A stretch of 63,628 bases of DNA from positions 1 to 63,628 of IMG/VR virus record IMGVR_UViG_3300048554_000002; one strand, 5' to 3'. Shown piece after piece: positions 1 to 63,628 of the stretch; the first letter of the stretch is position 1, and every line of letters begins with the position of its first letter. This DNA is from a virus. Lineage: Duplodnaviria; Caudoviricetes. The translations under genes were made by a program, and so were the position numbers. The notes under the pieces were generated by a model. The model did no database searches. It was not told the origin of the DNA and saw only the letters and a list, made by a program, of their open reading frames with translations.

Positions 1-135
1 GTTGGTTAGCGCATTGGTCATAACTATGGCTTGGCCTTCATCAAAACCAGCGTTCTCTTGCAAGAACTTATTCATGGTTTCGGACACGCCAGTGTATTTG
101 CTAATTATAGACGTAAATTGTGACGCGGAAACATC
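1..135. repeat. Terminal direct repeat (assembly overlap) indicating a circular or circularly permuted genome
   Basis: Bases 1-135 equal 63494-63628 except G9 vs A63502, which is synonymous (CTA/TTA Leu) in the minus-strand gene. Confidence 0.97.
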
Positions 136-825
136 ACCACCTGTAATCTCAGCGGTAAGAGACGCGGTAATACTATCCTTAACGCCGTCTTGGAGTTTCT
201 CCCAACCACCTACAATGGGATTACCTTCAACGTCTATACCACCAGTAAAGTTTTCGTACTTAGCGTCTATTTTATCTGCTATTTGCCCGAGACTAGCGCC
301 AACTGCAGCGTTAAGACCTCCTGTAGCAAACGCCTGTAGTGGGTCTTGTCCGTATATAATTGCCGTAGTAGCGGATTGTGTACCACCTTTAATACCTGCT
401 TGGACAGCGGCTTCGACGGTAGAGTTTAACCCTGCGCTAGCTATTTTTGGGTTAACATATGTTGAACTAAATTCTCCAACTTTCCCAGTAGCATAAGAAA
501 TGGCTGCGGCCTTAACTACATCACCAAGATCGCCTCCGTTTGCGGCTACTGCAGCACCGTCAATAAGAGGGAGCGCCCATGCGTTACCCGTAGCAACTGC
601 GCCTATCTTAGCAATAGTAGTAATCGGGTCGTCTAGCGCAGCTTGAATAACATCCCCAACGCCACTTAGTACGGGTTCGACTATCTCGTCTACAACCCAA
701 TCAACAGCGTCACCAACAACGCCGACAACATCTTCGACAATATCTACAACACCACTAGCGACATCTTCGACAACATCCACCGCCGTGTTAACCACATCTT
801 CGACAAGTTCAACTACTGCTGACAT
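1..825 (-). CDS. 5' part of a giant (~2208 aa) internal virion/ejection protein that continues across the junction into 57692-63628
   Basis: ATG at 825 lies 1 nt after the TAG of the upstream gene. The frame MSAVVELVEDVV...SKYTGVSETMNKF is open. Position 87 equals 63580, and 825-87 = 246 codons in frame. Confidence 0.9.
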   Translation of the reverse strand, partial: MSAVVELVEDVVNTAVDVVEDVASGVVDIVEDVVGVVGDAVDWVVDEIVEPVLSGVGDVIQAALDDPITTIAKIGAVATGNAWALPLIDGAAVAANGGDLGDVVKAAAISYATGKVGEFSSTYVNPKIASAGLNSTVEAAVQAGIKGGTQSATTAIIYGQDPLQAFATGGLNAAVGASLGQIADKIDAKYENFTGGIDVEGNPIVGGWEKLQDGVKDSITASLTAEITGGDVSASQFTSIISKYTGVSETMNKFLQENAGFDEGQAIVMTNALTN

Positions 826-826
826 G

Positions 827-1294
827 CTACATTATCTCACTTAACGGTATCTTACCTAAAGTTACGTATGCTCGTGATCCACCTGTGGCCTTTCGACCTA
901 CAGCGATTTCACTATCACCTTTGTCGGTGTATCGTTTCCACGTCTTAAACGCACTATCATATACGTCTCCATCATAGTCAGAAACGTATCGTTTTATACC
1001 TTTCCGTTGCATATAGGTAAAATAACGCAACCCGTTGGCTATAAAGTTTTGCGCCGTGTCAAGATTAAACGCACGGCCCCACATCAAGTCTTCGTTTTTG
1101 CCTTTGCCCCTATGCCCAAGAAACACTGTGTTCCCTATCTGCACCATGTCGGAGTCTTCCATATTCATTTCTTCGACGATACTGACCATCGCTGCTTCGA
1201 CGCTAATGTTTTTCGGTCCAAGCTCCCCAACTACAGTGGAAATAATTGTAGGTGCGGGTAGTGGTTCGGTTTTACTATCTACAACAGTTAGCAC
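827..1294 (-). CDS. Hypothetical protein, putative GNAT-fold acyltransferase
   Basis: 155 aa, tightly coupled to its neighbours. Predicted helix-helix-strands-helix-strand-helix-strand order resembles GNAT. Position matches GNAT-like genes that precede podovirus ejection proteins. Confidence 0.5.
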   Translation of the reverse strand: MLTVVDSKTEPLPAPTIISTVVGELGPKNISVEAAMVSIVEEMNMEDSDMVQIGNTVFLGHRGKGKNEDLMWGRAFNLDTAQNFIANGLRYFTYMQRKGIKRYVSDYDGDVYDSAFKTWKRYTDKGDSEIAVGRKATGGSRAYVTLGKIPLSEIM

Positions 1295-1295
1295 C

Positions 1296-2408
1296 CTACA
1301 CCTCCGTAGAAAAAATTGCGGCTGAATAGATGTTACCCATGCCAGCGGCTAGACTAAGAAACGGCCCTCGTGGGGCTGGCGCATCGTAGGACAAAAACAC
1401 ATCGTCGTCTTCAGTCCTATTGAGGATTTGTGGTACAATACCGCATTCCATGTCATTTAGCAACAGTCCTGTCTCTAATAACCCACTAGCGCTTAACGTA
1501 TGCCCTATTCGTGGTTTGTATGACGTAGCTACAAACTCACTAAGACTACGTTGCAACGCGGCTTTCTCTGCTTTATTATTAGCATCAGTGCCAGTCCCGT
1601 GCGTCTTTACCACGTTAACATCTTCCTTACGTACCCCCGCTACATGTAAGGAACCTTCGATAGCCTTAGAGTAGCCTTCACCATCAGGACGCTGCCCAAG
1701 CGGATTTGTGTTGTTTTCTGCAGACGTATATGCACCTAAAAACTTGGCCATAGGTGTGGACATACCTACATGTTCTTTCTCAAACACCGCTAATGCGGCC
1801 CCCTGACCTACATGAAATCCTGTGTTAACAGTATCAAACGCGGATGGTTTACGATCAGGTTCTTCTGATAGCTGTATACTAGCCTTGGCATCCCCGAAAA
1901 ACTCTAGCGAAGGTATGCACACAGAATCCTCACCCGCCAAGACAATGACCCTATCAAACCCGTAATGCCAAAACAAATTCTGCATATCCATAAGCACTTT
2001 TAAACTAGAGGCGCAGGCACTAGCATCTGTAGAAACGTGGTCGTGTACGTGAAACATGCTGGCTATTCGCCCTGCGTATATGTTAGTGAGCGTTATAAAC
2101 GGTATCTTGGTCTTGTAGTGCAGTTCCGCATCAGTATTCCTATCATATCGCCCGCTTGTGCCCATCCAGCCTTGGCTACCTGCAGCAAACATAAATGCAG
2201 TCTTACCGCCAACAGGGTTACTCACAACGTAATCTATAGTTTTTTGTAGTATAACTTTGTCAAACGCTTTGTGTGGAGGGTAGAACAACCCTGACTTAGC
2301 GCGCCTAAAAGTATCTTTTACGATATGCACGCTTTGCGGAAATGCTATATCTTCGTAAGTAGTTTTTTCCGTAGTGCATAGTGTTTCACAATGGGTCATG
2401 TATATCAT
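1296..2408 (-). CDS. fabF: Beta-ketoacyl-ACP synthase (FabF/FabB-type ketosynthase)
   Basis: Cys-His-His triad motifs DASACASS, KTHGTGT and SYKPRIGHTLSASG, plus GFHVGQGAA and a C-terminal AAGMG. Confidence 0.9.
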   Translation of the reverse strand: MIYMTHCETLCTTEKTTYEDIAFPQSVHIVKDTFRRAKSGLFYPPHKAFDKVILQKTIDYVVSNPVGGKTAFMFAAGSQGWMGTSGRYDRNTDAELHYKTKIPFITLTNIYAGRIASMFHVHDHVSTDASACASSLKVLMDMQNLFWHYGFDRVIVLAGEDSVCIPSLEFFGDAKASIQLSEEPDRKPSAFDTVNTGFHVGQGAALAVFEKEHVGMSTPMAKFLGAYTSAENNTNPLGQRPDGEGYSKAIEGSLHVAGVRKEDVNVVKTHGTGTDANNKAEKAALQRSLSEFVATSYKPRIGHTLSASGLLETGLLLNDMECGIVPQILNRTEDDDVFLSYDAPAPRGPFLSLAAGMGNIYSAAIFSTEV

Positions 2409-2692
2409 ACAACGGACTCCATAGCTGCTTCAACAGAATCAAAATCCTGCTTTTTGTTCTCAAGCATGTAATCTCGTACGGCACGTAAAGACGTTACAGG
2501 TATATTAAAATCCTCCGTCTCTGGAAGTCCGTATATATCTGACAACATTACTAATGTAAGCGTCACGTCTAAGCTATCTAACCCAATGTCTTCTTCTTTT
2601 AGGGTTACATCTAATGATTTAGGTTTAGTGTATTTGTCTAAACGCGGTTTATTTTCGCGGACGCAAGCGTCGAACAGTTCTATAAAGTCCAT
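2405..2692 (-). CDS. acpP: Acyl carrier protein
   Basis: 95 aa acidic protein with the phosphopantetheine-site motif IGLDSLD. Stop overlaps the KS start (ATGA). Confidence 0.88.
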   Translation of the reverse strand: MDFIELFDACVRENKPRLDKYTKPKSLDVTLKEEDIGLDSLDVTLTLVMLSDIYGLPETEDFNIPVTSLRAVRDYMLENKKQDFDSVEAAMESVV

Positions 2693-2732
2693 TTTGCACC
2701 TATCTGTTGAGGGTGCTTTTATTGTACAGCAT

Positions 2733-3356
2733 TTAGTTATTACTTACAAACTGAACTGCTACCACTGAAGAAGGAAGACCGGGATGCGGTGTAGTCGCCG
2801 CCTGTGTTTGTAGGGTAAGATCAGTATCATCTACAGCCCAATACATTTCTATATACTGGTCTGCGAGCAAATCTATAGAAAAATTCCAAAATACTGCTGT
2901 ATGGTCGTTACCTTTAATTGAATTTTTCTGTCCGCCGTACGGCACATCTGTACCGTTTTTGTTTATCCACGTCCACAATATCGCAGTGGCCGAGTTATCT
3001 TTCTTAACCTGCATTGTCACTTGAAAGTTGTATATGCCATCAGCCGTTACTGTTATTCTAGTTTTGTTAGTTCCTTCTATAGATACACTATTCCATAGGT
3101 AGCTATTTTCAAACTCAACCGGATACCCTGTATTAGGTGCCGTTGCGGTCTGATTTGTAGTGCTGTAAAATAACCCGCGTGGTAGGTATAAGAATTTACC
3201 ACCATCATCAGAATCTAACAACGTATTTACCACGTTAAGAAACCTATTGAAGAACAAACGTAGCACGTTGCTATTCTGGTCCATGTATGGACGTTCATAA
3301 CCTTCAGGCGCTAAAGGAAGCGCGGGTGTAGCTACCTTATCTATTTCGTTAGGCAT
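2733..3356 (-). CDS. Virion/tail-associated protein with C-terminal beta-rich (C1q/BclA-like) domain
   Basis: 207 aa, coupled to the nozzle gene. Motifs ITVTADGIYNFQVTMQ and DQYIEMYW. Confidence 0.55.
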   Translation of the reverse strand: MPNEIDKVATPALPLAPEGYERPYMDQNSNVLRLFFNRFLNVVNTLLDSDDGGKFLYLPRGLFYSTTNQTATAPNTGYPVEFENSYLWNSVSIEGTNKTRITVTADGIYNFQVTMQVKKDNSATAILWTWINKNGTDVPYGGQKNSIKGNDHTAVFWNFSIDLLADQYIEMYWAVDDTDLTLQTQAATTPHPGLPSSVVAVQFVSNN

Positions 3357-5203
3357 TACCGCCTCCCGTCAGGGCGCATGTCAATCCTCGGTGCGCCGAG
3401 CTGCCATGTAACACCTTCTCCTGTGGACTCAACTTTCATAGCAAGCTGCCTACCACGCACGCGGGTATATATCTGCCCCGTATACGCCTCTACAGGAAGC
3501 ACAGCCGTACGGGTTATCGTACGTGAGTTACTACCACCTTCCGACAGAGGATCATTATAGCCAGACCCAGAATTGGCAAGTGGTAGTAACGTCATCGTCG
3601 CACTGGGGGAACCTGTTGTAGACCCATCAAACCGTATGTCAGGCAATATGCGCCATATAAACGCAAACTGATGGCCGTCTTCTAAGTCAAACTCTGCAGA
3701 AGCAACAAACGCGTGTATGGCTGCGGTGGTAGCTGTCTCGTTGTCATCTACACCTTCCTCGTGGTTTACGAGGTTATATGAGTATGTAGCTGCAAGCGGG
3801 TTACCCCGTAGACCGGAATCAAGCCATGCAGTGCGGGCCATTGTGCCATAGTACCAAATATCTTCTAGGTAGTTGTACACCACATAACGATCTATATTTG
3901 TCTGATCGGTAGAACAATAGAACCACCACACTTCGTGATACGACTCGTTAGTCCCTGCAAATACTTGGTCGTATTGTTGCTCGTTGAAGTCACCAAAGAC
4001 AAACTTACGCAGGTCACAGCGCAGGGGTTGAGTACGCCCGTCATACTTGTAGAACTTATCTTTACCCATCCAGTAGGCTACGCCATTAGCATAGGCTACA
4101 CAGTTTTGTGATGCTGTAGATATGTTTTCACCAACAAGCTGCGCAGACCACACTACAGGAGCGCCCACATATTGTAGCGAATAGAGAGCCGCGTCAGTCC
4201 AGACCAGCACCTCCTGTCTAGCTTGTTTAGAGGCTATAATCTCGGTGCCACGAGATAACGTAAGGAACCCTGCTTGTGATGTAACCGATGGTGTCCAATC
4301 TACTACACTACCTTGATCCGACCATCGCACCAACATAGGGTTGACTGTGGAACTACCAAACTCATTTGTACCGAACGCAAACACAAAACGATTGATGTCG
4401 GATACTTCTAAAATACGTTGGCTTGTGGGTACGTTGCTTGCGCCACCAAGGGTTGATAGCTCTACACCGCGGGATGTTAGTCCGCTAGTTGCATCCCAAT
4501 AATATATCGGCCCCCCACGAGGCCCAAAAACAAGGTCTTCGCCAAAATTAGACTGGCTCCAAAGCCTGATTGCATCTGTAGATGTGTCACCTACACCCCA
4601 CGTACCAGAACCCCAAGAAGAAGCGCCCCAACCTGTAAGGGGGATTGCAAACGCGGGACCAATGTTGATCTGATACGCCGCCGTAACCGTACCACCACCT
4701 GTTGCAGTAGAGGAAGCTGCAGAACCCGCATCTATTGTGTATTCGTTGGTAGTGGTAGTAAGAGTTATCTGATACTCACCGTTTAGAGTAAGCCCACCCA
4801 CGGCGCTAGCACCACTATAGGTAACAAAATCTCCGTCTGTATAGCCGCCATTCGCATCGGTAACCGTAACAATAGGAGAACCTGAAGTTGTTGCGAACGG
4901 GTTTGTGAGCGTCACTGTAGCACGTAATGGGGTGATGTCGTTATACGCTCCACCGTTCTCAATGTAGTATTTTAGGTTGGTGCCGACGGCAATAAGGTTC
5001 TGACTACCTAGTGTTACCCAATTCCATAATGACCTACACACACCTTGAAACGTGGTAGCAGATATACGTTGCCAACCACCTATCTTCTCAGGTGTACCCT
5101 GCCGAAAGCGTATCTTGTCGCACTCGTACCAGCCACCTTCGCTTGTGTAGCGTGTGTTTTCGCGGTTCACACCAGACTTTAAAAGTAGCTTCTTTAGGGG
5201 CAT
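3356..5203 (-). CDS. Tail nozzle / head-stabilisation protein (P22 gp10 / T7 gp12-like position)
   Basis: 615 aa, beta-propeller-like. N-terminal DKIRFRQGTPEKIGGW, VRWSDQ, and C-terminal RVRGRQ...WQLG...DGRR. Confidence 0.7.
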   Translation of the reverse strand: MPLKKLLLKSGVNRENTRYTSEGGWYECDKIRFRQGTPEKIGGWQRISATTFQGVCRSLWNWVTLGSQNLIAVGTNLKYYIENGGAYNDITPLRATVTLTNPFATTSGSPIVTVTDANGGYTDGDFVTYSGASAVGGLTLNGEYQITLTTTTNEYTIDAGSAASSTATGGGTVTAAYQINIGPAFAIPLTGWGASSWGSGTWGVGDTSTDAIRLWSQSNFGEDLVFGPRGGPIYYWDATSGLTSRGVELSTLGGASNVPTSQRILEVSDINRFVFAFGTNEFGSSTVNPMLVRWSDQGSVVDWTPSVTSQAGFLTLSRGTEIIASKQARQEVLVWTDAALYSLQYVGAPVVWSAQLVGENISTASQNCVAYANGVAYWMGKDKFYKYDGRTQPLRCDLRKFVFGDFNEQQYDQVFAGTNESYHEVWWFYCSTDQTNIDRYVVYNYLEDIWYYGTMARTAWLDSGLRGNPLAATYSYNLVNHEEGVDDNETATTAAIHAFVASAEFDLEDGHQFAFIWRILPDIRFDGSTTGSPSATMTLLPLANSGSGYNDPLSEGGSNSRTITRTAVLPVEAYTGQIYTRVRGRQLAMKVESTGEGVTWQLGAPRIDMRPDGRR

Positions 5204-5211
5204 GTTACACC

Positions 5212-5688
5212 TTAATCTATAAGTTCAAAATGAGGGCCGTCAATAAATGGCCTACGCCCCTGCGATCTACGAAGGTCAACATACGCGTTCATAGCGTCTT
5301 CCATTGTGCCGTTCCATTTACGAATGTCCATAGGGTATGGCATTTCAGGTGTACCCCATGCAGCGCCCCAACAAATAGAAACACCTACCACTTCTGCGGC
5401 TTCTTTGATCGCATCGGCAAGATCATCGTATAAATTCAGTTCCCACGATGCACGCCCATTAACATAGGCCATAATATCAAAAGCCTTACCCTCAAGGTGT
5501 TTTGACTTCATGGTTTGACTAGCGCCTTTAGCGACCAACTCTTTTTGTTGTTCCAAGGTTCTCATCCCTTGCACAACACCGAAATCAGTTTTTGTTAGGG
5601 TTATGGCATGTTTCACAACAGCCTGTAGCCGTTCGTCAATACCCTCAAGCCTATCAAGGCTACGTCTACTTAACTTAAACTCGCTCAT
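5212..5688 (-). CDS. Endolysin, L-Ala-D-Glu peptidase (M15C family)
   Basis: Start moved to MSEFKLSRRS (RBS GAGG). Motifs QGMRT.EQQ, SKHLEGKAFD and DGPHFEL. Confidence 0.9.
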   Translation of the reverse strand: MSEFKLSRRSLDRLEGIDERLQAVVKHAITLTKTDFGVVQGMRTLEQQKELVAKGASQTMKSKHLEGKAFDIMAYVNGRASWELNLYDDLADAIKEAAEVVGVSICWGAAWGTPEMPYPMDIRKWNGTMEDAMNAYVDLRRSQGRRPFIDGPHFELID

Positions 5689-5689
5689 G

Positions 5690-6073
5690 TTACTTCCTCT
5701 TAAAAAATGCCTGTGCCCCGCGCACACCGAAACTGGCTGAAATTGCAATTCCAAGGCTGTAAAAATACCAGTCTGGCGCTTTGTTGAGTTGTTCAAAGCC
5801 TCGGTCTACCCAACCTTCTGCGCCCGGAATCCAGCATAAAATCAATGGGATAGACAAGATAATTACGAACCACTCATCCTTCCAGCTAGACTTGGCACCT
5901 TCTGCCATGATGCGTTCCCAGTCTGCGACTGAGGTTTCCTTGGACAGCATAATCTTGGCTTTGGCTTCTGCTTCTGTGAGTTTTAACTTGGCATCCGCGG
6001 CTTGTTTGTCAGCTTTACCCTGCAGCCAAGAAGAGGCTAGATTACCTAGTGGTCCTATTAGCGCCTGTATCAT
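5690..6073 (-). CDS. Holin (3-TM type)
   Basis: 127 aa with SSWKDEW motif, hydrophobic segments and a basic C-terminus. Directly upstream of the endolysin. Confidence 0.7.
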   Translation of the reverse strand: MIQALIGPLGNLASSWLQGKADKQAADAKLKLTEAEAKAKIMLSKETSVADWERIMAEGAKSSWKDEWFVIILSIPLILCWIPGAEGWVDRGFEQLNKAPDWYFYSLGIAISASFGVRGAQAFFKRK

Positions 6074-6270
6074 TTCTCAGACCCCAACCACACGGCTATC
6101 GTTCCCGTCATAGCCCCACTAACCACTGAAATCATTGCGGATTGCTGCGTTGACAAGTCATCCAAACTCATTCCCCACTCAATCACACGGATATACATAA
6201 TCGTCATAACAACCATCATAAAACGTGGCATGAGCTTGTATTGCAGAATCTTTTCAAAGGTATTTGCCAT
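6070..6270 (-). CDS. Small 2-TM membrane protein (lysis-associated)
   Basis: 66 aa with two hydrophobic helices, RBS GAGG, overlapping the holin start. Confidence 0.65.
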   Translation of the reverse strand: MANTFEKILQYKLMPRFMMVVMTIMYIRVIEWGMSLDDLSTQQSAMISVVSGAMTGTIAVWLGSEK

Positions 6271-6271
6271 G

Positions 6272-6532
6272 TTACACCTCTATGTTTAACTTCGTTCCTT
6301 GCGGCCTGTCCGCATTGGTCTTGCGTCCGAACCTATCATAGCTTTCTGATAATTCCAACTGTTGCTTTCTTAGGGCTTCTAGGTGTTGGTGGTTATTCCT
6401 GTGGTTCTTTTCCACCCGCTGTTCTGTGAGGTGGTTTTCTATGCGTTCGCGTGCACGCGTTTGTTCGTGGATGTGACTTCCCACATCGAACGGCATGTTA
6501 CCTACACCTGTAAGTCCGTCAGCCACAGCCAC
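6272..6532 (-). CDS. Hypothetical protein
   Basis: 86 aa ORF tightly packed in the operon. Confidence 0.6.
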   Translation of the reverse strand: MAVADGLTGVGNMPFDVGSHIHEQTRARERIENHLTEQRVEKNHRNNHQHLEALRKQQLELSESYDRFGRKTNADRPQGTKLNIEV

Positions 6533-24059: not shown

Positions 24060-24069
24060 AGCTTACCTC

Positions 24070-25635
24070 TTAATAATATCCGCCGCTGCGCTGTTTCCAG
24101 TATCGGGGTTCTTCTGGTTCGTCCGTGGGTAGTCGGATAAAGCCACCTTGCCTGAACCGCATCAGAGCCATAACCGTCGAATCCACGAGGTCATCATTAC
24201 TCATAAACGGGAATCCTGCAATCTCTTCCACTACTTCTTCTGCCCACCGTGTCTGTGGCACCCACACAAGCTCGGACGCAATTATGTCCGCTACAGAGTT
24301 GAGGCGTGCCGTCTTATCCCCTGACCCCCTGTGGGGGGTATACTCCGATATGGGTAGACCCATACGCCGCATTTCTTGGTACAGGGCTACGCCAGAGCTT
24401 TTCTTCTCAACTATGAACGAATCTGGCTCCCAGTCCATGTATTCTTCCATAGCAAGCTGTTTAAGCTCTGGGAACTCCATACGCTGTTTTATGCTATTTA
24501 ACAATATAATATTGTACGCGTTGGTTTCCTCGTTCAAGAAAACACCCCATGTGGTAAGCGCTGTATAGTCTGCACGGTTGTGCTTCTCGGCTGCGGCATC
24601 AAGCGACATTATAATATATTCACAGGGTGGCGGCTGGTCGTGTGTCCATTCCTGCCACCACTCACGCTTGACGATAGCGGCTTCTTCTGCGGTAGGCTGC
24701 TGCTGGTACTGCGCGTTCCACTGGAACGTAGGCATCGACGCCTTGGTGCGTAGCAGCGCCTCTAAATCGAAGAACTCAGGCCACAGAGGTTTTTGTACTT
24801 CCTTCTTCGTCTTTTTGTTGAATGTGTCTAAGATCGCGGGAAACTCGACTACCTCGTATTGGTCTGACCGTTCGTTCTGCACCATGTCCCGCACAACGCG
24901 TCCTGTCAGGTCATCCATGTGCCAACGCGTCTGGATTATTGCAACCCTACCGCCCGGCATAAGGCGAGTACGGGCACCGAAGGTGAACCACTCATAGGCT
25001 TTCTCGAACACCTCGAAGTTTCCGTTAATAACGTCCTGCTCAGAGTGAGGGTCATCAACAAGCAGAAGATCAGCACCACGACCAGCCAATGCTGACCCAA
25101 TACCACACGCATAATATTCACCTCCTACGTTTGTGTTCCACCGTCCTGCTGACTTACTATCCTGTGCTAGTTGCACGGTAGGAAATATGGAACGGTACTG
25201 ATCTGTAGCAATCAGGTTACGCACTTTACGCCCAAAATCCACCGCGAGGTCCGTGGTATGGGACACCATCATCACCTTTTTGCCGGGATTTCGCCCTAAA
25301 AACCACGCTGGGTAGAAGATCGAAACAAGCTGAGATTTGCCGTGTCTGGGGGGTATATTCACGCAAACCCGGTCCTTATCGCCCTTCTCAATACCCATTA
25401 ACATGTTAGCCAGTATACGGTGATGCTTACCAACTATGAAATCAGGCATCATCAACTTGCAAAACTCTATCAGATCGTCATACGCAGCCTTATTTGCCGT
25501 CCGATTGTGCAGCTCATCCACCATCCGGTCGATTTCTGCCACCTCTTCGTCACTAAACGTGTCCAGATTGGCCAACATGACCTCGATATCGGCCTCGTCA
25601 AAGTCCAAAGCCTCAGTCATCGTCGTCAAACCCAA
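24070..25635 (-). CDS. terL: Terminase large subunit
   Basis: Walker A PPRHGKS, Walker B LLLVDDP, motif III QTRWH, and nuclease motifs SLDAA...NDDLVDS. Confidence 0.95.
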   Translation of the reverse strand: MGLTTMTEALDFDEADIEVMLANLDTFSDEEVAEIDRMVDELHNRTANKAAYDDLIEFCKLMMPDFIVGKHHRILANMLMGIEKGDKDRVCVNIPPRHGKSQLVSIFYPAWFLGRNPGKKVMMVSHTTDLAVDFGRKVRNLIATDQYRSIFPTVQLAQDSKSAGRWNTNVGGEYYACGIGSALAGRGADLLLVDDPHSEQDVINGNFEVFEKAYEWFTFGARTRLMPGGRVAIIQTRWHMDDLTGRVVRDMVQNERSDQYEVVEFPAILDTFNKKTKKEVQKPLWPEFFDLEALLRTKASMPTFQWNAQYQQQPTAEEAAIVKREWWQEWTHDQPPPCEYIIMSLDAAAEKHNRADYTALTTWGVFLNEETNAYNIILLNSIKQRMEFPELKQLAMEEYMDWEPDSFIVEKKSSGVALYQEMRRMGLPISEYTPHRGSGDKTARLNSVADIIASELVWVPQTRWAEEVVEEIAGFPFMSNDDLVDSTVMALMRFRQGGFIRLPTDEPEEPRYWKQRSGGYY

Positions 25636-26209: not shown

Positions 26210-26240
26210 AGTACGTCGCAGGTTGGTAACCGATAACGTA

Positions 26241-26269
26241 ATAATAGGGTACAAAAAATTTTTTGACAA
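26241..26269 (-). promoter_or_regulatory. Sigma70-type promoter for the morphogenesis operon
   Basis: TTGTCA-N17-TATTAT, about 30 nt upstream of the TerS ATG. Confidence 0.65.
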
Positions 26270-26577
26270 GGGTTTTGAAAAAGAGGTGGGGGGTGTCCTG
26301 TGTGGGGCAAACGTAAAAGTTGGTCCATATTTGAGCGTATTAGTATTATACAGGATAGCGCGGAGTCCCACATGACAGCGCGGTGGGTGGGGTAGGTGTA
26401 CCCTCGACAGATTAGGATTTTCGGGCATCTGCCCGAATTATCTTTTAGTGATATCTAATGTGATTTGATTGCTTTTAGTGGGTAAACCTATTGCGTAACA
26501 TGTTATGACATGGCATAAATGTTTCATCGGGACAGCAAGACACTGGGTCAAGCGCCGATTTATTTGGAGTAAATCAA

Positions 26578-57005: not shown

Positions 57006-57692
57006 TCACGCGGGTATAAATTTCTTAGGGTCTATCTCTTTACCCTGTTTATCGTTGCCTGTACGGGCTTTGCGTACACGACGCATCATGTCTTGTAATA
57101 CTTTAGCACCTGCATCGGAGTTACCGTTGCCTAGATGGCTTACAACATCCGCAGGAATAACAAACTCACCATCACTTAGTCGTGCTTCTTGCTTACCTTC
57201 AATGTTAGCAGGAACTTTGTCAGCCATTCCATCACTAGCACCATCAAGATATTTGCCTTCTTTTAACTGCGCAATACCCCCTGCAGCCATCCCTGTGGGT
57301 TCTTCCTGTACAGGTTCTGGAATACGTGGACCACCGGGTCTTCTACGTTCTTGTCGTGCAGGGTTAGCCGCGTTTAGTGCCGCCAAACCTTCCGCAGACA
57401 TTGGTGTTGCGGGAGCCTCGCCCTTTGGACGATATTGTGCCTGCGTAAAATACCGCTGCCCACCACTTCCGGGTCGTCTGTTAGGATCATACGTGCTAGG
57501 TACAGTTTCGCGCTGTACTTCGTACTCAGGAATATCGCCTTGGTAACCTGTTTGTGGGATGTTAGCTTGCCCAATACCAGACTGGTTTAGTAAGTAACCG
57601 CCTCCAAGACTTACAGCCGCACCAAGAAGATCAAGTTCCCCGTCTTCACCTGAAACAAGTCCTTTGAGTGCATTGTCTAACCAACTAGCCAT
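57006..57692 (-). CDS. Internal virion protein
   Basis: 228 aa with MAAGGI...G..DG.AD..PA..ARLSDGEFVIPADVV..LGNG. Confidence 0.7.
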   Translation of the reverse strand: MASWLDNALKGLVSGEDGELDLLGAAVSLGGGYLLNQSGIGQANIPQTGYQGDIPEYEVQRETVPSTYDPNRRPGSGGQRYFTQAQYRPKGEAPATPMSAEGLAALNAANPARQERRRPGGPRIPEPVQEEPTGMAAGGIAQLKEGKYLDGASDGMADKVPANIEGKQEARLSDGEFVIPADVVSHLGNGNSDAGAKVLQDMMRRVRKARTGNDKQGKEIDPKKFIPA

Positions 57693-60600
57693 TACATATC
57701 TCCAAGTATTCTTAGTAGCATATCATTTTCATCCTCAACCTGTCCACCCTCTGCAAAGCCACTAGCAAAAGCCAACGGACCCGCGGGATTATTTGCAGGT
57801 CGTGTAGTGGGCGCTCGTGCAGTTCCGTATGGACTTACAAACTTTTGTGCCTGTCCTTGGTCCCTGAAGATAGACTCAAAGCTGTAAGGTGTTATGTCCG
57901 CTAACGCATCAGGGGTTTTAACATCTACGCGTCTTCCGCCTATGTCCTCTGCTTGCATTAACATGTTTGCCAAATCATTTACGTTCTGTTGCTGCGTTTG
58001 CGTGTTAATTTTTGTGTCAATCTGGGTGTTCAGATCAGTAATCATATCGGTGATTGCGTCCGTATTTGCGTCTATCTCGCTGTATATACCTGTAGCGGGA
58101 GTGAACATGGACGTATCTGCAAGGGTAACATCTTCTTCACCCTGTAATGCTGTTTCTAACAGAGTTTGGTCATTTATGTCAATGATACCATCCCCAGTAA
58201 CATCATACTGCGTGATTAACTCCGCGCTGACATTTTCTTGCGCGATTAAGTCGATTACGAAGTCTATGTCTTCCTGTGTAACTTCTCGTGCAGGTTTACC
58301 AACAAGGTCTGCTACCGCGTCGATATCTGCACCAAGGCTGGCCTTTACGTCACCTATAGCAGTTGTAAAACTTTCCGTTAACTCGTCTTTAGTAGTACCA
58401 AGTTCTGCGAGTATGTTTGTTTCTGTGGTGCCCAGCGCGGCGGATAGTTCCGCAAGTGCGGCATCGACATCACCGTCATTCTTCTCAATTAATTCAGTTA
58501 GGCGTGTCTCTACGTCACCAATTTCCGTGGTTAAGCCTGCTACGTCCTCGGCAACATCCGCCACGTCCCCAGCAATACCTGCTACATCTTCTTTTACCTC
58601 TGCAACGTCCTCGGCTACAGCGTCTATTTCACCGCTAAGTTCTTCTTTTGTTAGCCCAAGCTGCTCCAACATAGCATCTTCAGTGAGGCCAAGGTCTTCA
58701 GTTAGTTTGTCAATCGCAGCTTGTAACGCCTCGTCGCGTGTAGCGCCTTCCTCTAACTCTTTGTATATCCCTGTAGCTTCTTTGGATTCATCTTCTGGTG
58801 TATTCGGGTTATCCTCAACGGACGGTGAACCCATAATAGACTTAATCACGTTAAACGTAGCAGTCGGCATATACGTGGTAAGCTGTTCACGTTGAAACGC
58901 CTCAAACCCTGCCGCGTCATAATCTTCGGACTCAGGATCAAACTGCCCTACAAACCGATCTACATCTTCTTGTGTTACATCTACAAGGCCCAACTCTTCG
59001 TAGGCTGCACGTACTTCACCAGCGTCAAAGAACCTTGGGTCTACAAACTCGTCGATGGCGGCTTTTTGTGTAGTCTGGTAGTTTTCGTCATTTACCTGCC
59101 CAGTAAACGCTGCAATATCTTCCTGTGACGGTTGATACCCGATAGCACTTAGGAACTCTTCTGCTTCTGCTGCGGTTACCTGCCGTGGGTCAACGTAGCC
59201 ACCGATAGCACTTGTCTGCGTTTCTTCTGTCTTAGAAGCCACAAACTGTGCGATTTCTTCTGGTGTTGCGGTATATCCTGTATCTGCAAAGAACTGTGTA
59301 GCTTCTTCTAGGGTGGTCGCTAACGGGTCGTATTCTGCACGCGCTTCCGATAGTTTTTCGGACGCGTAATTCTCCGCTACACCTTGACCTACATATGTGG
59401 CCGCTAGGGCGTCAGTTAGGGTAAGCCCTTCTTCATCGGCAATAGCCTGCACTTCTTCACGGGTAACCTGTCGTGGGTCTACATAAGACGCGATAAGTCC
59501 AGACTGTGTAGTTTCTTCAACCTGCGCAACAAACTGCTCGACCTGTTCATCTGTCGGTTCATATCCAAGATTTGTAAAGAACTCACGCGCTTCTTCCGCC
59601 GTGACCTGCCGTGGGTCTACGTAGGTTCCAACACCTGTTTCTGTAGTAGTCGCAAAGTCTTCTTCGCCTTGACCTACAAAATCTGCTACTTCTTCATCGG
59701 TAGCTTCATATCCTAGCGCATCAAACAATGCCTTGGCTTCGTCTGTGGTGACCTGCCGTGGGTCAACAAACTCTGCAATGGCGGCTTTTTGTTCTTCTTC
59801 AGTTTTAGACGCAACAAAGTCCGCAACCTGCTGGTCTGTAGGTGTGAACCCTTGAGCCTCAAAGAATTGTTTGGCTTCCGCAGTGGTAGTCGCTAGTGGG
59901 TCAAACTCGGCGGTAGCTGCAGCAAGTGTAGATTCTTGATCTTTTTGCCCAAGATACGTAGCGGCCAAGGCTTCTGTAAGTGTAAGTCCTTCTTGATCTG
60001 CAATGGCTTGTACTTCGGCTTGTGTGACGAATCGCGGGTCCACATAATCGGATATGGCTGTCTGCTGCTCACTTTCCGCTACTTGCGCAACAAAGTCTGC
60101 AACCTCTTCGTCGGTAGGCGTATACCCAAGGTCAGAGAAGAACTTGCGAGCTTCTGTATCAGTTACCTGTCGTGGGTCTACATACAGCGCCGTAGCGTCT
60201 TTCTTGTTAGTCTCGAAGTTTTCAGTGCCTTGCCCAACGTAGTTAGCGACTTCTTCATCTGTAGGTTCGTACCCTTGATCTTCAAAGAACTTACGGGCTT
60301 CTGCTTCGGTTACCTGTCGTGGGTCTACATAAGACGCGATGGCCTCTTTCTGGTCGGCATCTGGGGTTGCGCCCATATACGAAGTGATTTCTGCTTCTGT
60401 CGGTGTATAGCCTAAATCGTCAAAGAACTGTTCGGCTTCTGCGCGGGACGTACCTTGTGAATCGTACTCGGCTGATATTTCCGCAACGGCTGCGGCTTCG
60501 TCTTTCTGACCTACATATGCTTCCGCTTGCTCATCGGTAAGCGTTATACCCTCTGCAGCGGCGGCGGCTTTTACTTCGTCAGCGTCTAAGAATTTTGGGT

Positions 60601-63600
60601 CTATGTAAGATGCAACCGCAGCAGCTACATCAGATTCTGGTCTATTGGATACAAACGATTCTATTTCTGCATCTGTCGGCTCAAATCCGGGGTTTGCGTC
60701 CTTAAATATTTTGGCCGCTTCGTTCGTACTAACGTACATAGTGTCGTACGTGGAGTTGAGCACGTTGTTTAATATTACAGTGTCAGTAATACCTAAAGTG
60801 TTAAGCGCTGCTGTAGCGGCTTCGGCACTACCTGCGTTTTTAACAGTGTTTACCACCGTAGGGTTTAACGACATAAGCGCATCAGCTACCGCGTTGCCTG
60901 TATATAGCGTGCCCCCGACCCCGTAGCCAGAAACAGCACCCATAAATCCGTTTTCAAATACGGAACCCGCAACATCGTAGTTAGGGTCAATCTGTGAGTT
61001 TACCGTCGCCGTAAATAGTTGTGGTAAGGCTTCCTCTATAAACTCTGTTGAGCCTTCTTTTATGGCTACAGTACCACCGTCCTGTATCTTCTTACCTAGT
61101 TTTTGGAACGCGTCCCCGGCAAATTCACTGGCATTATCACCAAGGATGTTTTTAGCTAGTGCCGCACCACCAAACCCTGCACTGGCAGCGGTAGTAAATA
61201 GCGCAATAGTCCCTGCCTTTTGGGCGGTGTCCATGGCAAGATCGGTAGCCTCTTGTTCAGACATTCCTTGCGCTATAGCGTTTGCATATGTCTCATCGAA
61301 AGCTCCTGCAGCCGTACCGCCAAATGCTTCCGCTGCGTCTAAGGCTACCGCACTACCGACTGCGGCCTTTGTAGCAAATTTTTTCGCGTAGGCTTCCCCA
61401 CCCTGCAAGAGTGCAGCTTTCGCAACGTTGCCCACGCCCCCAGAGACTATAAGAATAGGTATTTCCTGCAAAATCTCACTAGCTACGTTTTCCGCAAGGA
61501 ATTGTACAGGATGTTCTGTTAGGTTGCCCCAAATTGACTGCGCTTTTAACCAACCCTTTTGCACTGTGCTGGGTTCTTTGCCGGGATTATTCTGTCGCCA
61601 TTCTTTGTCGTAATCCTGCGACCGTTTCTGCATATCTTCTGCGCCAGCTACCCACGCGTCAGAACGCAGGTCACCACTTAACGCTAGTAGATTTTTAGCA
61701 GTCTGCCCTACAGTGTTATTTGGGTTTGCGCCAACTAGAGTAGCCAATCCTGATATGGCCTGTAGCATTTCACCAGTTGCGCCAGTAACTACACTTGCAG
61801 CGTTACCAAAGGCTTCCTGTTGATCTTCAGGAGTTTCGTCTAAATATACTTGTTTTAGTTTGTTGTATACGCTCCAAAGCGTACCGCCTGTATCCTCGTC
61901 AAATTGCTTACCTTGGTTATCGTCTAACCCTGCGATAGTCGCTACTACGACTCCGCTTGCAGGGGGTAAGTTCTTTACAGATATTTGACCATCTTCAGTA
62001 AACGCGGTCATTTTGTCGTTACTGAGGTACGAAAACCCTTGTGGTACTTCTTTAAACGCAAGCGGTCCATATAACGCATTAAATGCAACGTCCACTACAT
62101 CAAGGTTTGGGTTTGCGGAACTAGCTACACTGCTTACGTTTGTTTCGCCTAGCTTTTCCTGTTTCGTAGATGGTAGCTCCCATGACAACTTTCCATCCGT
62201 ATTGACGAGCACCGCCCCACCGCTAGTCAGCGTACCAACATCAACACCTGCGCCGAACGTCACTGTGTCTAGCGTAGCTTCGGGTGGATTGTTTTTGAAA
62301 TCTGTAGCCGCAGCGTCTACTGCTGAAAGGCTTGGTTTATCAAACGCAGGGTCACCCGCACCGCCGTCAAAAGCATCTTTAAACGCGTTGCCAACATTAA
62401 CTATGTTATTAGTAGAATATCCATTCGCGCTTAGTAGGTCTTTTACTTCGTCTCCTGACATACCTGTAGTGTCGAGAAAAACGTTAGACCCATCGCTGTT
62501 TTTTGCGTCAAGTTTAATATACTCGCCTGACAAAAACACATTATAATCCTCTGTGGATTGGGGTATAAACCCTGCGTCTTTTAGCGATGTTGTTAGTTCA
62601 GGGGTCAGCGCAGCATCCGCAACCATAGTGTTGGCGAACTTATCTAAATCTAACCCTGTAATACTTGCGGCGTTCTTTATTTCTTTGTCTGCGTAAGCAA
62701 GATATTTAGCTAACTGGCCCGGTTCTAAGGAGGCAAGTGTCAGCCCTTTTGCAGCTAAAGCGTTTTCTACGGTAGATAATCTAATGGCGTCTAGGGTGGC
62801 GTCTGCTTCTGACTTGTTTGCTGGACCCTGCTGCCCATTAAGAAGAAAATGTTCTGCAACGTTGTCAACATCTTGGCCGAGGAACTCTTTGTATGCCTCT
62901 GCATCAAAATTTGGACGTAGGGACAGTGCCGCTGCAAGCGTAGCCTTATCATAAACAGGCTTCATAGCCGCGTCTAGGTCGTCTATGTCGGACATCATAG
63001 CTTTTGTTTTTGCAGTGTACGCGGCGTCTAGTTCAGGGATTTGCGCGGTATATGTGTCATAGTCTGTTTTATATTTGTCTAACGCAGGTTTAAGCGTATT
63101 GTCGTAGTCACTCTTAAACTGATCCGCAAAAGTTTGATATGCCCCCGCCGCAGAATTAAGGGCATCCACAGTAGCTTGTGTAGGGTTTTGATTATAGGCT
63201 TTAAGCGCGGCGTTATAAATACCTTCAAGCCGTTCTTGCTCTATTACTTTCTTTTGTATCGCAACTTGCGTGGCATTATAATTCTCCGCTGCTGATACAG
63301 CGTTTGCCGACGCTTCATTTAGTGCGTTTGCGGCTTCCTGAGTAGCACTGGATGCTCCTGTAACCTTGTCTATGGCGGCATCAACAGGGCGGTCTACAAT
63401 ATCTTTAAGCGCCTCCATCCCGTACTCATCCCACTTAGCAAAAAATGCGTCGGAACTTAGTTCAGGGTTGCCTTCCAAAGCTACAGTTGCAGCGTTGGTT
63501 AACGCATTGGTCATAACTATGGCTTGGCCTTCATCAAAACCAGCGTTCTCTTGCAAGAACTTATTCATGGTTTCGGACACGCCAGTGTATTTGCTAATTA

Positions 63601-63628
63601 TAGACGTAAATTGTGACGCGGAAACATC
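57692..63628 (-). CDS. 3' part of the giant (~2208 aa) internal virion/ejection protein with ~13 tandem 45-50 aa repeats
   Basis: Continues from 825. Acidic, with YVDPRQVT..EA..FF...GY.PT repeats and a hydrophobic central segment. Confidence 0.88.
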   Translation of the reverse strand, partial: DVSASQFTSIISKYTGVSETMNKFLQENAGFDEGQAIVMTNALTNAATVALEGNPELSSDAFFAKWDEYGMEALKDIVDRPVDAAIDKVTGASSATQEAANALNEASANAVSAAENYNATQVAIQKKVIEQERLEGIYNAALKAYNQNPTQATVDALNSAAGAYQTFADQFKSDYDNTLKPALDKYKTDYDTYTAQIPELDAAYTAKTKAMMSDIDDLDAAMKPVYDKATLAAALSLRPNFDAEAYKEFLGQDVDNVAEHFLLNGQQGPANKSEADATLDAIRLSTVENALAAKGLTLASLEPGQLAKYLAYADKEIKNAASITGLDLDKFANTMVADAALTPELTTSLKDAGFIPQSTEDYNVFLSGEYIKLDAKNSDGSNVFLDTTGMSGDEVKDLLSANGYSTNNIVNVGNAFKDAFDGGAGDPAFDKPSLSAVDAAATDFKNNPPEATLDTVTFGAGVDVGTLTSGGAVLVNTDGKLSWELPSTKQEKLGETNVSSVASSANPNLDVVDVAFNALYGPLAFKEVPQGFSYLSNDKMTAFTEDGQISVKNLPPASGVVVATIAGLDDNQGKQFDEDTGGTLWSVYNKLKQVYLDETPEDQQEAFGNAASVVTGATGEMLQAISGLATLVGANPNNTVGQTAKNLLALSGDLRSDAWVAGAEDMQKRSQDYDKEWRQNNPGKEPSTVQKGWLKAQSIWGNLTEHPVQFLAENVASEILQEIPILIVSGGVGNVAKAALLQGGEAYAKKFATKAAVGSAVALDAAEAFGGTAAGAFDETYANAIAQGMSEQEATDLAMDTAQKAGTIALFTTAASAGFGGAALAKNILGDNASEFAGDAFQKLGKKIQDGGTVAIKEGSTEFIEEALPQLFTATVNSQIDPNYDVAGSVFENGFMGAVSGYGVGGTLYTGNAVADALMSLNPTVVNTVKNAGSAEAATAALNTLGITDTVILNNVLNSTYDTMYVSTNEAAKIFKDANPGFEPTDAEIESFVSNRPESDVAAAVASYIDPKFLDADEVKAAAAAEGITLTDEQAEAYVGQKDEAAAVAEISAEYDSQGTSRAEAEQFFDDLGYTPTEAEITSYMGATPDADQKEAIASYVDPRQVTEAEARKFFEDQGYEPTDEEVANYVGQGTENFETNKKDATALYVDPRQVTDTEARKFFSDLGYTPTDEEVADFVAQVAESEQQTAISDYVDPRFVTQAEVQAIADQEGLTLTEALAATYLGQKDQESTLAAATAEFDPLATTTAEAKQFFEAQGFTPTDQQVADFVASKTEEEQKAAIAEFVDPRQVTTDEAKALFDALGYEATDEEVADFVGQGEEDFATTTETGVGTYVDPRQVTAEEAREFFTNLGYEPTDEQVEQFVAQVEETTQSGLIASYVDPRQVTREEVQAIADEEGLTLTDALAATYVGQGVAENYASEKLSEARAEYDPLATTLEEATQFFADTGYTATPEEIAQFVASKTEETQTSAIGGYVDPRQVTAAEAEEFLSAIGYQPSQEDIAAFTGQVNDENYQTTQKAAIDEFVDPRFFDAGEVRAAYEELGLVDVTQEDVDRFVGQFDPESEDYDAAGFEAFQREQLTTYMPTATFNVIKSIMGSPSVEDNPNTPEDESKEATGIYKELEEGATRDEALQAAIDKLTEDLGLTEDAMLEQLGLTKEELSGEIDAVAEDVAEVKEDVAGIAGDVADVAEDVAGLTTEIGDVETRLTELIEKNDGDVDAALAELSAALGTTETNILAELGTTKDELTESFTTAIGDVKASLGADIDAVADLVGKPAREVTQEDIDFVIDLIAQENVSAELITQYDVTGDGIIDINDQTLLETALQGEEDVTLADTSMFTPATGIYSEIDANTDAITDMITDLNTQIDTKINTQTQQQNVNDLANMLMQAEDIGGRRVDVKTPDALADITPYSFESIFRDQGQAQKFVSPYGTARAPTTRPANNPAGPLAFASGFAEGGQVEDENDMLLRILGDM
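63494..63628. repeat. Terminal direct repeat (copy of 1-135)
   Basis: 135 bp with one mismatch. Confidence 0.97.

Follow-up and report, generated by a model that had tools for sequence, protein, structure and literature searches.

Acetyltransferase-like genes head the ejection operons of podoviruses (Hardies 2016, PMC4819975), as the earlier note on this DNA had also stated, and the portions of that paper concerned with their products, the IVP-A class, describe these as resembling acetyltransferases, as necessary for morphogenesis and, in T7, as missing from the finished virion. Genetic work on T7 and P22 left the role of this acetyltransferase-fold gene unexplained. Small acyltransferases that move an acyl group from a carrier protein to an amine are known from other systems, including the HlyC/TAAT enzymes of RTX systems, the LuxI-type AHL synthases and lipopeptide GNATs. 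In the NodF/NodE/NodA system of rhizobia, a specialised acyl carrier protein (ACP) and a KAS-type ketosynthase (KS) build a chain that an N-acyltransferase transfers, the rest being provided by host FAS; the fold of NodA and its acceptor, a chito-oligosaccharide, differ from the phage GNAT case described below. Phage ACPs, and acpP-fabF-fabG in prophages, are treated as metabolic helper genes in the relevant parts of two papers (PMC11705849, PMC8224337). Our literature search found no paper describing an ACP–KS–GNAT cassette.

A compact ACP–KS–GNAT cassette between tail and ejection genes

The window, that is, the whole stretch of 63,628 nt analyzed here, comes from an uncultured marine short-tailed phage (IMGVR_UViG_3300048554_000002; Caudoviricetes). 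The record is a circular permutation in which 126 nt occur twice (63503-63628 = 10-135). Since a giant gene leaves the window at its start and resumes at its end in this permuted record, the two parts represent a single ~2200-aa protein. The genes considered are as follows.

3356..5203, minus strand: 615-aa virion protein of the tail nozzle/hub type, encoded by the final tail gene ahead of the cassette
2733..3356, minus strand: small tail protein, 207 aa, of which the N-terminal ~55 aa are conserved and the C-terminal module is exchangeable
2405..2692, minus strand: divergent ACP, 95 aa, with a candidate phosphopantetheine site at Ser40 (GLDSLD)
1296..2408, minus strand: trimmed FabF-like beta-ketoacyl synthase (KS), 370 aa, with Cys132/His270/Lys298/His303
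827..1294, minus strand: GNAT-fold protein, 155 aa, the positional equivalent of podovirus IVP-A
1..825, minus strand: N-terminal 275 aa of the giant protein, the first of the internal/ejection type
57692..63628, minus strand: remainder of the giant protein, joined via the circular permutation

The ACP, KS and GNAT genes are flanked by the nozzle gene on the upstream side and by the gene for the ~2200-aa giant protein on the other. Reading of the sequence showed that the ACP stop and the KS start codons overlap as ATGA, that 1 nt lies between the KS stop codon (TAG) and the GTG at which the 155-aa ORF begins, a GGAGG being located shortly before this GTG, and that 1 nt lies between the stop codon of the 155-aa gene and the ATG of the giant gene. 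The translational coupling of the trio from the nozzle side to the ejection side, as proposed in the earlier note, was thus confirmed by the ORFs and their junctions. No promoter- or terminator-like excess was found between the cassette genes (9 promoter-like sites in positions 1-6500 versus 10.1 expected). A tRNA scan of the sequence gave 0 genes, and its composition profile gave no relevant signal.

On the tail side, the 615-aa protein matched phrog_3287 ('virion structural protein'; E 6e-67) as well as phage nozzle chains of known structure (8zkk/8zkm, E 2e-6; 9nwi_Y, E 9e-14), and a nozzle-type gene was located upstream in all of the 106 related loci typed (106/106). The 207-aa protein had no match in Pfam, PHROG or PDB; relatives swap it for a pair of proteins of 61 aa and ~111 aa with another beta-rich C-terminal module, and this swap occurs both with and without ACP/KS. 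On the ejection side, the N-terminus of the giant protein consists of a Val/Asp/Glu-rich leader followed by a conserved block, DEIxxPV ... DDPIxTIAKxAAxATGNAWAxPLIDGA, and the protein weakly matched a tape-measure PHROG (E 2.6e-4).

The ACP and KS retain their key residues and are strongly diverged

As a single sequence, the phage ACP gave E 0.029 and 14.2 bits against TIGR00517, below the cut-off of 70.45, and no Pfam match at E<=0.1. In contrast, a profile of 29 phage ACPs matched solved ACPs over positions 6-82 of 95 (best E 4.5e-6), with acyl carrier proteins making up 60 of the 60 matches listed. The phage ACPs form a single family of 48 distinct sequences, in all of which the DSLD motif is invariant (48/48), and this family is acidic (pI 4.05-4.84). 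Assignment to the ACPs is therefore based on profile homology, the DSL serine as the predicted modification site and acidity, with the curated family model scoring below its cut-off. Complex I ACP subunits were also found among the top PDB matches of the phage ACP.

The KS carries PF02801 (65.9 bits) and PF00109 (31.7 bits), both above the cut-off of 20.8, and its Cys132, His270, Lys298 and His303 align to FabF. No substitution of these catalytic residues was detected in 46 aligned rows, in which 130 positions are invariant; the sole non-matches were gaps from cut contigs. The intact Cys-His-His triad that had been read from the single sequence was therefore borne out among relatives. The AF2 model (pLDDT 76.7, pTM 0.84) had FabF structures as its best fold matches (2rjt_A, E 4.4e-21, TMq 0.73). 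Both domains, the thiolase-type fold and the Cys-His-His plus Lys residues place the protein in the KAS I/II type.

The gene order, ACP then KS, is that of acpP-fabF, and the two proteins share the folds, the DSL serine and the Cys-His-His plus Lys residues of AcpP and FabF (KAS II). They differ from these housekeeping proteins in several respects. The phage ACP has T/L/S in helix II at the acidic positions of the aligned ACP, whereas the phage KS is ~40 residues shorter than FabF, with a remodelled N-terminal half (low-confidence model segments: 40-44, 80-91, 95-99, 162-164 and 186-197), and has AAGMGN in its C-terminal loop at the position of the FabF GFGG gate loop. Against the FabF equivalog TIGR03150, only residues 106-336 aligned, with 98.1 bits versus a cut-off of 493.75, and identity to FabF was ~20% across the structural alignment. 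A recent origin from near-identical host genes, which the earlier note had considered as an objection to its own proposal, is excluded by these values. Unlike a type II FAS locus, the phage genome showed no other FAS gene: at E<=1, PPTase, FabD, SDR reductase and FabA/Z dehydratase had no Pfam match in the whole 63.6-kb genome. The absence of these enzymes claimed previously thus holds at Pfam sensitivity, at which PF00550, searched over the whole genome at E<=1, misses even the phage's own ACP.

The 155-aa protein has a GNAT fold and the position of IVP-A

The AF2 model of the 155-aa protein was confident (pLDDT 95.5), and its elements (H14-25 H32-43 E48-53 E56-62 E70-77 H81-97 E102-107 H113-123 E129-134 E140-145) follow the beta-alpha-alpha-beta3-alpha-beta-alpha-beta(beta) order of the GNAT fold. 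The top Foldseek matches were GNATs (E from 4.3e-4), and VIA matches reached Z 9-10.6 with rmsd 2.7-3.7 over 112-135 residues, 46 of the 50 VIA matches listed being GNAT-type by title. The GNAT-like nature of the protein, suggested in the earlier note, is consistently supported by the model and both searches. The AHL synthases TofI (Z 9.8), LasI (Z 9.2), MesI and BjaI were also among the matches. The protein thus shares its fold with LuxI-type enzymes, and the step proposed below is of the same kind as that of known acyl-ACP-dependent acyltransferases; in contrast, the 155-aa family has no sequence membership in the HlyC-type, LuxI-type or lipopeptide-GNAT families (0/73), the LuxI-type Pfam family Autoind_synth being matched by 0/73 members. 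HlyC-type structures did not occur among the matches listed for the model, which is not an exclusion.

In a family alignment of 73 sequences (29% mean column identity), N55, Q52, N77, D79, N83 and N87 are invariant or nearly so. On the model secondary structure, these polar residues map to the beta2-beta3 turn and the beta4/alpha3 junction, the latter being the place where GNATs bind the pantetheine pyrophosphate. The canonical motif A (Q/RxxGxG/A) is absent from this junction, where the loop reads N77-L-D79-T-A-Q-N83, and an acetyltransferase Pfam family was matched by 0/73 members; GNAT catalysis is therefore only putative. Sequence comparison of the family with solved structures gave noise (best E 0.24), a PHROG search gave 0 consistent families among the 73 members, and a survey of 426 candidates, weak as evidence, revealed no longer, fused form.

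The 155-aa protein belongs to the IVP-A class by its position, its size and its fold, the sequence giving no placement in the Pfam families of that class. Its length is close to that of T7 gp13 and P22 gp14 (138-151 aa), and its gene directly separates the last genes of tail-tube/nozzle type from the first gene for an internal virion/ejection protein, an order that is the same in all typed loci reaching both sides and that was compared with the T7 and P22 maps. In addition, the viral fold matches include, at rank 22, a BFVD entry labelled 'Internal virion protein A' (E 1.7e-3, TMq 0.46). The differences are in sequence and in gene neighborhood: PF11090 (T7 gp13) and PF11039/DUF2824 (P22 gp14) were matched by 0/73 members, hhalign of the family profile against the single T7 gp13 and P22 gp14 sequences was negative (probabilities 0.2%), and T7 and P22 carry neither ACP nor KS beside the gene in the regions read.

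ACP and KS are optional additions at one fixed site

Related loci were found using the GNAT-fold protein alone, and the best 80 of 224 GNAT-bearing viral loci were typed. These 80 comprised 40 loci with ACP, KS and GNAT, 9 with ACP and GNAT and 31 with GNAT only, and none with a KS but no ACP (0/80). In the same best 80 of 224, the GNAT gene always immediately preceded the giant gene. Each ACP in the typed loci was immediately upstream of GNAT or KS-GNAT and nowhere else, and the GNAT tree required at least six gains or losses of the cassette. The GNAT gene is thus the core, to which ACP, with or without KS, is joined as an option at a single fixed site; this nested distribution across the best 80 of 224 loci is what is new here. 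Because 31 of these 80 loci lack both ACP and KS and the state changed at least six times, the core job of the GNAT-fold protein is independent of both. Accordingly, the part of the earlier note that treated the trio as one dedicated module was weakened, since the three genes do not form an obligatory unit (31/80 without ACP and KS, 9/80 with ACP but no KS; best 80 of 224). Since the ACPs at the fixed site form a single family, the pattern may reflect one old insertion followed by losses rather than function.

In the freshwater phage MW202545.1, the gene order is the same at identities of 52.6% (KS), 31% (ACP) and 31% (GNAT), and its trio precedes ejection-type genes, the last of which encodes an SLT-domain protein. 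Synteny of the trio with ejection-type genes, on which the earlier note had staked its proposal, was observed in every related locus reaching such genes, MW202545.1 included. A search of 50,697 phage records gave MW202545.1, which is uncultured, as the sole match and thus no cultured member, and single-protein scans of viral contigs for distant relatives with P0263 and P0218 gave none. In the cultured Alteromonas phage R22Y, an ACP-like ORF is followed in turn by a 167-aa ORF and the gene for a 919-aa protein; this phage was rejected as a cultured analogue since homology was not significant (hhalign probabilities of 27% and 1.8%, HMM ~2-7 bits). Separately, six contigs of 151-171 nt (depth 2-4, >=95% alike) from an oligo-dT marine RNA library, X1, fell on the GNAT and KS genes; these do not demonstrate transcription, as DNA carry-over is possible, and stretches lacking cover carry no meaning.

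Tests of a GNAT–ACP link and of an acceptor

The earlier note had suggested structure prediction for the pairing of GNAT and ACP. Docking of the two proteins gave a median ipSAE of 0.55 (runs 0.00, 0.62 and 0.55), whereas the best of three controls gave 0.03; at least 12% of the contacts agreed among the runs, and the partner pLDDT was at least 74. The docking mark is reached by 58/80 solved complexes and 2/110 mismatched pairs, with 7/80 solved complexes and both passing mismatches reaching it at <=0.60. The pairing is therefore weakly supported: the median exceeds the controls, but one run was 0.00. No GNAT residue tracked the presence of ACP across independent transitions, and the columns that differed followed phylogeny; the GNAT of locus L094, which has no ACP, resembles those of ACP-bearing sisters, and the GNATs of the ACP-bearing loci L049, L052 and L061 resemble those of ACP-less neighbors. 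Spearman correlations of pairwise identities over 51 loci (ACP-KS 0.75, KS-GNAT 0.56, ACP-GNAT 0.69) were set aside as a sign of linkage, since shared descent and mosaic recombination explain all of them.

We also examined the start of the giant protein. No invariant acceptor residue was found at the N-terminus among 71 distinct starts: residue 2 varies (S/A/G/P, sometimes F), and the first conserved Lys is not invariant. The earlier proposal that an acyl chain is attached to an ejection protein is thus supported in part: the synteny and the GNAT fold stand, but this N-terminus offers no conserved acceptor residue.

A possible acyl-donor role and its alternatives

Our best guess, tentative and held with slightly less than even confidence, is that ACP and KS form a private acyl-donor module feeding a GNAT-fold IVP-A. 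The gene identities, folds, catalytic residues, coupling and nested distribution are observed, and from them we infer all chemical steps, and the acceptor, of the following scheme. The 155-aa protein would be the IVP-A of this phage group, a small, acetyltransferase-fold, presumably non-structural protein at the head of the ejection operon, and the ACP, and with it the KS, would be a dispensable module that lies immediately ahead of it and supplies an acyl donor of the phage's own. Host PPTase would first convert the ACP to holo-ACP at Ser40. The KS would then load the phage ACP, perhaps by condensation of a primer acyl group with malonyl-ACP, in which case the chain would stay at the 3-oxoacyl stage for lack of a reductase, or perhaps by relaying an acyl group of host origin through Cys132. 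Finally, the GNAT-fold protein would use the acyl-ACP as a donor to acylate an acceptor needed for the assembly or function of ejection proteins, the leading candidate being the first ejection protein, which is translated right after it. Relatives lacking ACP and KS would draw on host acyl-ACP or acyl-CoA.

This scheme is supported by the nested, position-fixed distribution, whose order is kept across the deep divergence to MW202545.1, and by the tight translational coupling. Purifying selection on the DSLD motif, the KS residues and the GNAT polar residues argues for it as well, as do the acyl-ACP-using enzymes TofI and LasI among the fold matches, the distance of KS and ACP from host housekeeping genes and, weakly, the docking result. 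It also agrees with the acetyltransferase-like, morphogenesis-required character of the IVP-A class in the relevant portions of PMC4819975. The dispensability of ACP and KS, the lack of a GNAT residue tracking ACP, the missing motif A and acetyltransferase Pfam match and the missing conserved acceptor residue count against it, as do the single ACP family, which may go back to one old insertion, the Pfam label of T7 gp13 as a 'probable scaffold protein' and the docking run at 0.00. Compared with NodF/NodE/NodA, the phage genes differ in sitting in a virion operon.

It is also possible, though rather doubtful, that ACP and KS serve host lipid metabolism as an accessory ('moron') or auxiliary metabolic pair, are functionally unlinked to the GNAT-fold protein and owe their position to historical accident. 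At late stages of infection, such a pair might divert fatty-acid synthesis or inhibit it, the gene boundary being merely permissive. This would be in line with the classification of phage ACPs as metabolic helpers in the parts of PMC11705849 and PMC8224337 mentioned above, the repeated loss or gain of the cassette while GNAT was kept, the missing co-adaptation signature in GNAT and the membership of all phage ACPs here in one family. However, the restriction of ACP in these loci to sites upstream of GNAT or KS-GNAT, the overlapping or 1-nt-spaced genes inside a late structural operon and the strong divergence of both proteins from housekeeping forms are not readily reconciled with it, and a lone KS and ACP without FabD/G/Z/I cannot by itself raise fatty-acid flux.

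Alternatively, the GNAT-fold protein could be a non-catalytic assembly chaperone or scaffold, with the ACP (with KS) as a protein cofactor or structural partner. T7 gp13 is a 'probable scaffold protein' in Pfam, IVP-A is described as an assembly protein absent from the virion in the portions of PMC4819975 concerned, canonical motif A is absent, and ACPs are structural subunits elsewhere, as exemplified by the complex I ACPs noted above. We nevertheless consider this improbable, since the serine of the invariant DSLD motif and a KS tetrad free of substitutions point to thioester chemistry and the conserved GNAT polar cluster resembles a ligand site. Production by the trio of a diffusible or packaged small molecule, such as a 3-oxoacyl amide or an AHL-like signal made by a LuxI-type GNAT, is very improbable: a KS without a reductase would give 3-oxoacyl-ACP, the LuxI-type donor, and AHL synthases are among the fold matches, but these score no better than ordinary acetyltransferases, Autoind_synth is matched by no member, and GNAT heads the ejection operon in all relatives, including the 31 of the best 80 of 224 loci without ACP/KS.

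Implications for virion assembly

Returning to the reading in which ACP and KS supply an acyl donor to the GNAT-fold protein, the cassette hints at phage-made acylation during virion assembly. The position-fixed, repeated recruitment of ACP and then KS is a first genomic hint of the substrate class of the acetyltransferase fold in this position. A broader version, which we regard as unlikely, is that IVP-A proteins including T7 gp13 and P22 gp14 are acyl-ACP-dependent acyltransferases that fatty-acylate an ejection protein for envelope entry, and that some marine and freshwater phages add a private ACP and KS for a special, probably 3-oxo, donor. Bacterial viruses would then have an equivalent of the myristoylated penetration proteins known from non-enveloped animal viruses. 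Should acyl transfer not be real, the cassette would still be a widespread, compact and diverged ACP-KS pair. If it is real, phage ACP genes booked as metabolic helpers would need to be re-read, and virion assembly and cell entry would gain a new step, protein lipidation encoded by the phage.

Gene order around the ACP–KS–GNAT cassette

The window, 63,628 bases long, is a complete phage record of IMG/VR. The record is circularly permuted, as its final 126 bases (63503-63628) repeat positions 10-135; IMG/VR classes it as linear. Because of this terminal repeat, the minus-strand ORF at 1-825 continues at the window end (57692-63628), and the open-ended ORFs of 275 aa and 1978 aa are one gene encoding a giant protein of about 2200 aa. 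The late genes all lie on the minus strand, in the following order.

Late genes of the window, in order
Minus strand: terminase and portal, followed by the major head protein, at the start of the late-gene order
Minus strand: 1420-aa tail fibre, after the major head protein
5212-5796, minus strand: endolysin, inside the structural operon and just upstream of the nozzle gene
Minus strand: 615-aa nozzle-type protein, after the endolysin
2733-3356, minus strand: 207-aa small tail protein, between the nozzle-type gene and the ACP
2405-2692, minus strand: acyl carrier protein (ACP), after the 207-aa tail gene
1296-2408, minus strand: ketosynthase (KS)
827-1294, minus strand: 155-aa protein (GNAT)
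1-825 and 57692-63628, minus strand: giant protein
Minus strand: proteins of 228, 291 and 623 aa, after the giant protein
47618-54247, minus strand: second giant protein of 2209 aa, with an LPD39 domain and a DarB-like C-terminus

The earlier note had put nozzle genes on one side of the trio and the first ejection protein on the other. The nozzle side was borne out by matches of the 615-aa protein to solved structures whose chains were deposited under the name of phage nozzle proteins; the label "ejection protein" for the giant is based on its position and on an SLT-domain protein found at the end of this block in the uncultured freshwater phage MW202545.1. The proposed translational coupling of the trio was evident in the sequence itself, as an ATGA overlap and two 1-nt spacers, and promoter-like sites showed no enrichment.

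In the second giant protein, an LPD39 domain (E 7e-12) is accompanied by a C-terminal region resembling DarB-like antirestriction proteins (phrog_10089, E 1e-36); a role as a packaged polyvalent anti-defence protein is probable. Short DNA stretches of the endolysin gene were 79-84% identical to the endolysin genes of Roseobacter phages CRP-1 and CRP-345; no other pointer to a host was seen. The N-terminal ~55 aa of the 207-aa tail protein are kept across relatives, and in many of them (L030, L034, L042, L077, L012 and others) the gene is replaced by a 61-aa ORF and an overlapping ORF of ~111 aa carrying a beta-rich module unrelated to the C-terminal part of the 207-aa protein. This swap was independent of ACP/KS presence, and the C-terminal module has the look of an exchangeable receptor-binding or tip domain.

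Nested distribution of the cassette genes

A KS-seeded scan of viral contigs yielded 28 loci with 67-99% identity, each having, within contig reach, the order nozzle, small tail protein, ACP, KS, GNAT and giant protein. Among 50,697 GenBank phage records, the trio was found only in MW202545.1 (KS 52.6%, ACP 31% and GNAT 31% identical to the window), where it has the same location and is followed by four proteins, the fourth annotated with an SLT domain. The database search upheld the expected synteny with ejection-type genes. The other 22 KS matches in GenBank phages were partial, 23-31% identical, and resembled bacterial fabF.

A scan seeded with the GNAT only gave 224 loci, the best 80 of which, not a random sample, were typed using HMMs made from the window's proteins. 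Of these 80, 40 carried ACP, KS and GNAT, 9 carried ACP and GNAT without KS, and 31 carried the GNAT only; KS without ACP occurred in none. Because every one of the 80 contigs includes the upstream tail genes, ACP and KS are truly missing where they were not found. Where the ACP occurs without the KS, it abuts or overlaps the GNAT. Hence the GNAT is the core element, always heading the giant gene; the ACP comes as an addition to this GNAT, and the KS as an addition to the ACP.

When 64 distinct GNAT sequences were placed on a maximum-likelihood tree, at least six architecture changes were required (lowest possible, two), compared with a mean of 24.4 after label shuffling, and none of 200 shuffles was as low as six. 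One small GNAT clade holds all three architectures. Together, these results indicate that the architectures are inherited, yet were gained or lost several times. The GNAT of L016 was 99% identical to that of the window, its KS 80.5% and its ACP only 37%; L105 showed 83% for the ACP, 94% for the GNAT and 62% for the N-terminal half of the KS. These mosaic identities, seen also in L018, place recombination breakpoints inside and between the cassette genes.

The 155-aa protein as an IVP-A-type GNAT

The 155-aa protein had no family match in Pfam, NCBIfam or PHROG. The family it belongs to is large, with members similar in length; the 90% clusters hold 178 of them at E<=0.001, and there are 163 representatives at 50% identity. 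The predicted model, built with a 73-sequence alignment, had a pLDDT of 95.5 and the GNAT order of elements. Its top PDB matches in Foldseek were GNATs (E from 4.3e-4), and an independent structure search gave Z 9-10.6, with 46 of the 50 listed entries being acetyl/acyltransferases or AHL synthases as judged by title. Canonical motif A is absent, and Q52-x-G-N55-T and N77-x-D79-x-x-x-N83-x-x-x-N87 are conserved in its place.

According to Hardies et al. (PMC4819975), the family of an ejection-operon head gene matches acetyltransferases by HHpred, as does T7 internal virion protein A (IVP-A), which is needed for morphogenesis but does not stay in the virion; homologues occupy this position in P22 and epsilon15. 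On the genome maps, T7 gene 13 (product PF11090) is flanked by 12 and 14, and P22 gene 14 (product PF11039) by 26 and 7. In position, size and fold the 155-aa protein agrees with this class, but by sequence it belongs to neither the T7 nor the P22 family. In a viral fold search, an "Internal virion protein A" model appeared only at rank 22, the best nine matches being unnamed uncultured-phage proteins (TMq 0.60-0.85). For these reasons we treat its sequence family as new, and as one of the IVP-A kind.

Conserved residues of the ACP and KS

The ACP is too diverged to reach the Pfam and TIGRFAM cut-offs. Its single-sequence PDB matches were weak; every one was an ACP, and the DSLD motif was aligned in them. 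With a profile built from 29 phage relatives, E 4.5e-6 was reached, and all 60 listed rows were ACPs. The DSLD serine was invariant in all 48 distinct ACP sequences (from 75 ORFs).

The KS scored above both Pfam domain cut-offs, and the claim that its catalytic residues are intact was confirmed: Cys132, His270, Lys298 and His303 align to FabF, with zero substitutions over 46 aligned rows (130 invariant positions in the alignment). The predicted model (pLDDT 76.7, pTM 0.84; N-terminal half least confident) was closest to FabF structures (TMq 0.73, E 4e-21, ~20% identity), and the protein is far from the FabF equivalog (98 bits; cut-off 494). The reported lack of PPTase, FabD, SDR and FabA/Z held, in that no such Pfam domain was found in the genome, in a search that also misses the phage's own ACP.

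A possible acyl-donor module for the GNAT

As the best explanation, we tentatively propose that the ejection-operon GNAT has an optional acyl-donor module private to the phage, formed by the ACP with or without the KS, mainly because the nested distribution fits an arrangement in which the ACP would serve the GNAT and the KS would serve the ACP. The main rival, which we consider somewhat less likely, is that ACP and KS are an accessory pair unrelated to the GNAT. The nested distribution does not prove the donor reading: all phage ACPs form one family, and one old insertion with later losses could yield the same nested picture. Moreover, the GNAT columns distinguishing loci with an ACP from those without track phylogeny, and the co-adaptation test gave no column signal tied to ACP presence beyond it. 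Identity correlations among ACP, KS and GNAT were uninformative on the donor-module explanation. GNAT–ACP docking gave a weak pass (median 0.55; runs 0.00, 0.62 and 0.55; best control 0.03), and passes at <=0.60 are wrong more often than right unless the guess is already likely.

The central proposal of the earlier note, acylation of an ejection protein, stands as a hypothesis. The giant protein starts with M-[S/A/G/P], rarely M-F, followed by a Val/Asp/Glu-rich leader of variable length and a conserved block (DEIxxPV ... DDPIxTIAKxAAxATGNAWAxPLIDGA) found in all three architectures. Since residue 2 is not uniform and several loci have another residue instead of the block Lys, this N-terminus offers none that can be named as acceptor.

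The cultured N4-like Alteromonas phage vB_AmeP-R22Y (PP212876.1, L109; region 23774-27301) has an ACP-like 98-aa ORF with a DSL motif (PF00550, E 0.007), overlapping a 167-aa ORF without a family and followed by a 919-aa protein. The N-terminus of the latter (…IWQEITVPILE…) resembles the leader of the window's giant protein in style; homology between the R22Y ORFs and the window genes was not significant. R22Y could nonetheless serve as an experimental stand-in. The R22Y paper books its ACP as a metabolic helper gene, the reading that published phage ACPs are given (PMC11705849 and PMC8224337). Neither an ACP–KS–GNAT cassette nor an ACP linked to an internal virion protein was found in the full-text literature, whose coverage mostly excludes subscription journals.

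The observation is real. Taken singly, the ACP, the KS and the IVP-A-type GNAT are ordinary; their combination and placement are unusual. New here are the three-state nested distribution and its phylogeny, together with the negative co-adaptation test.
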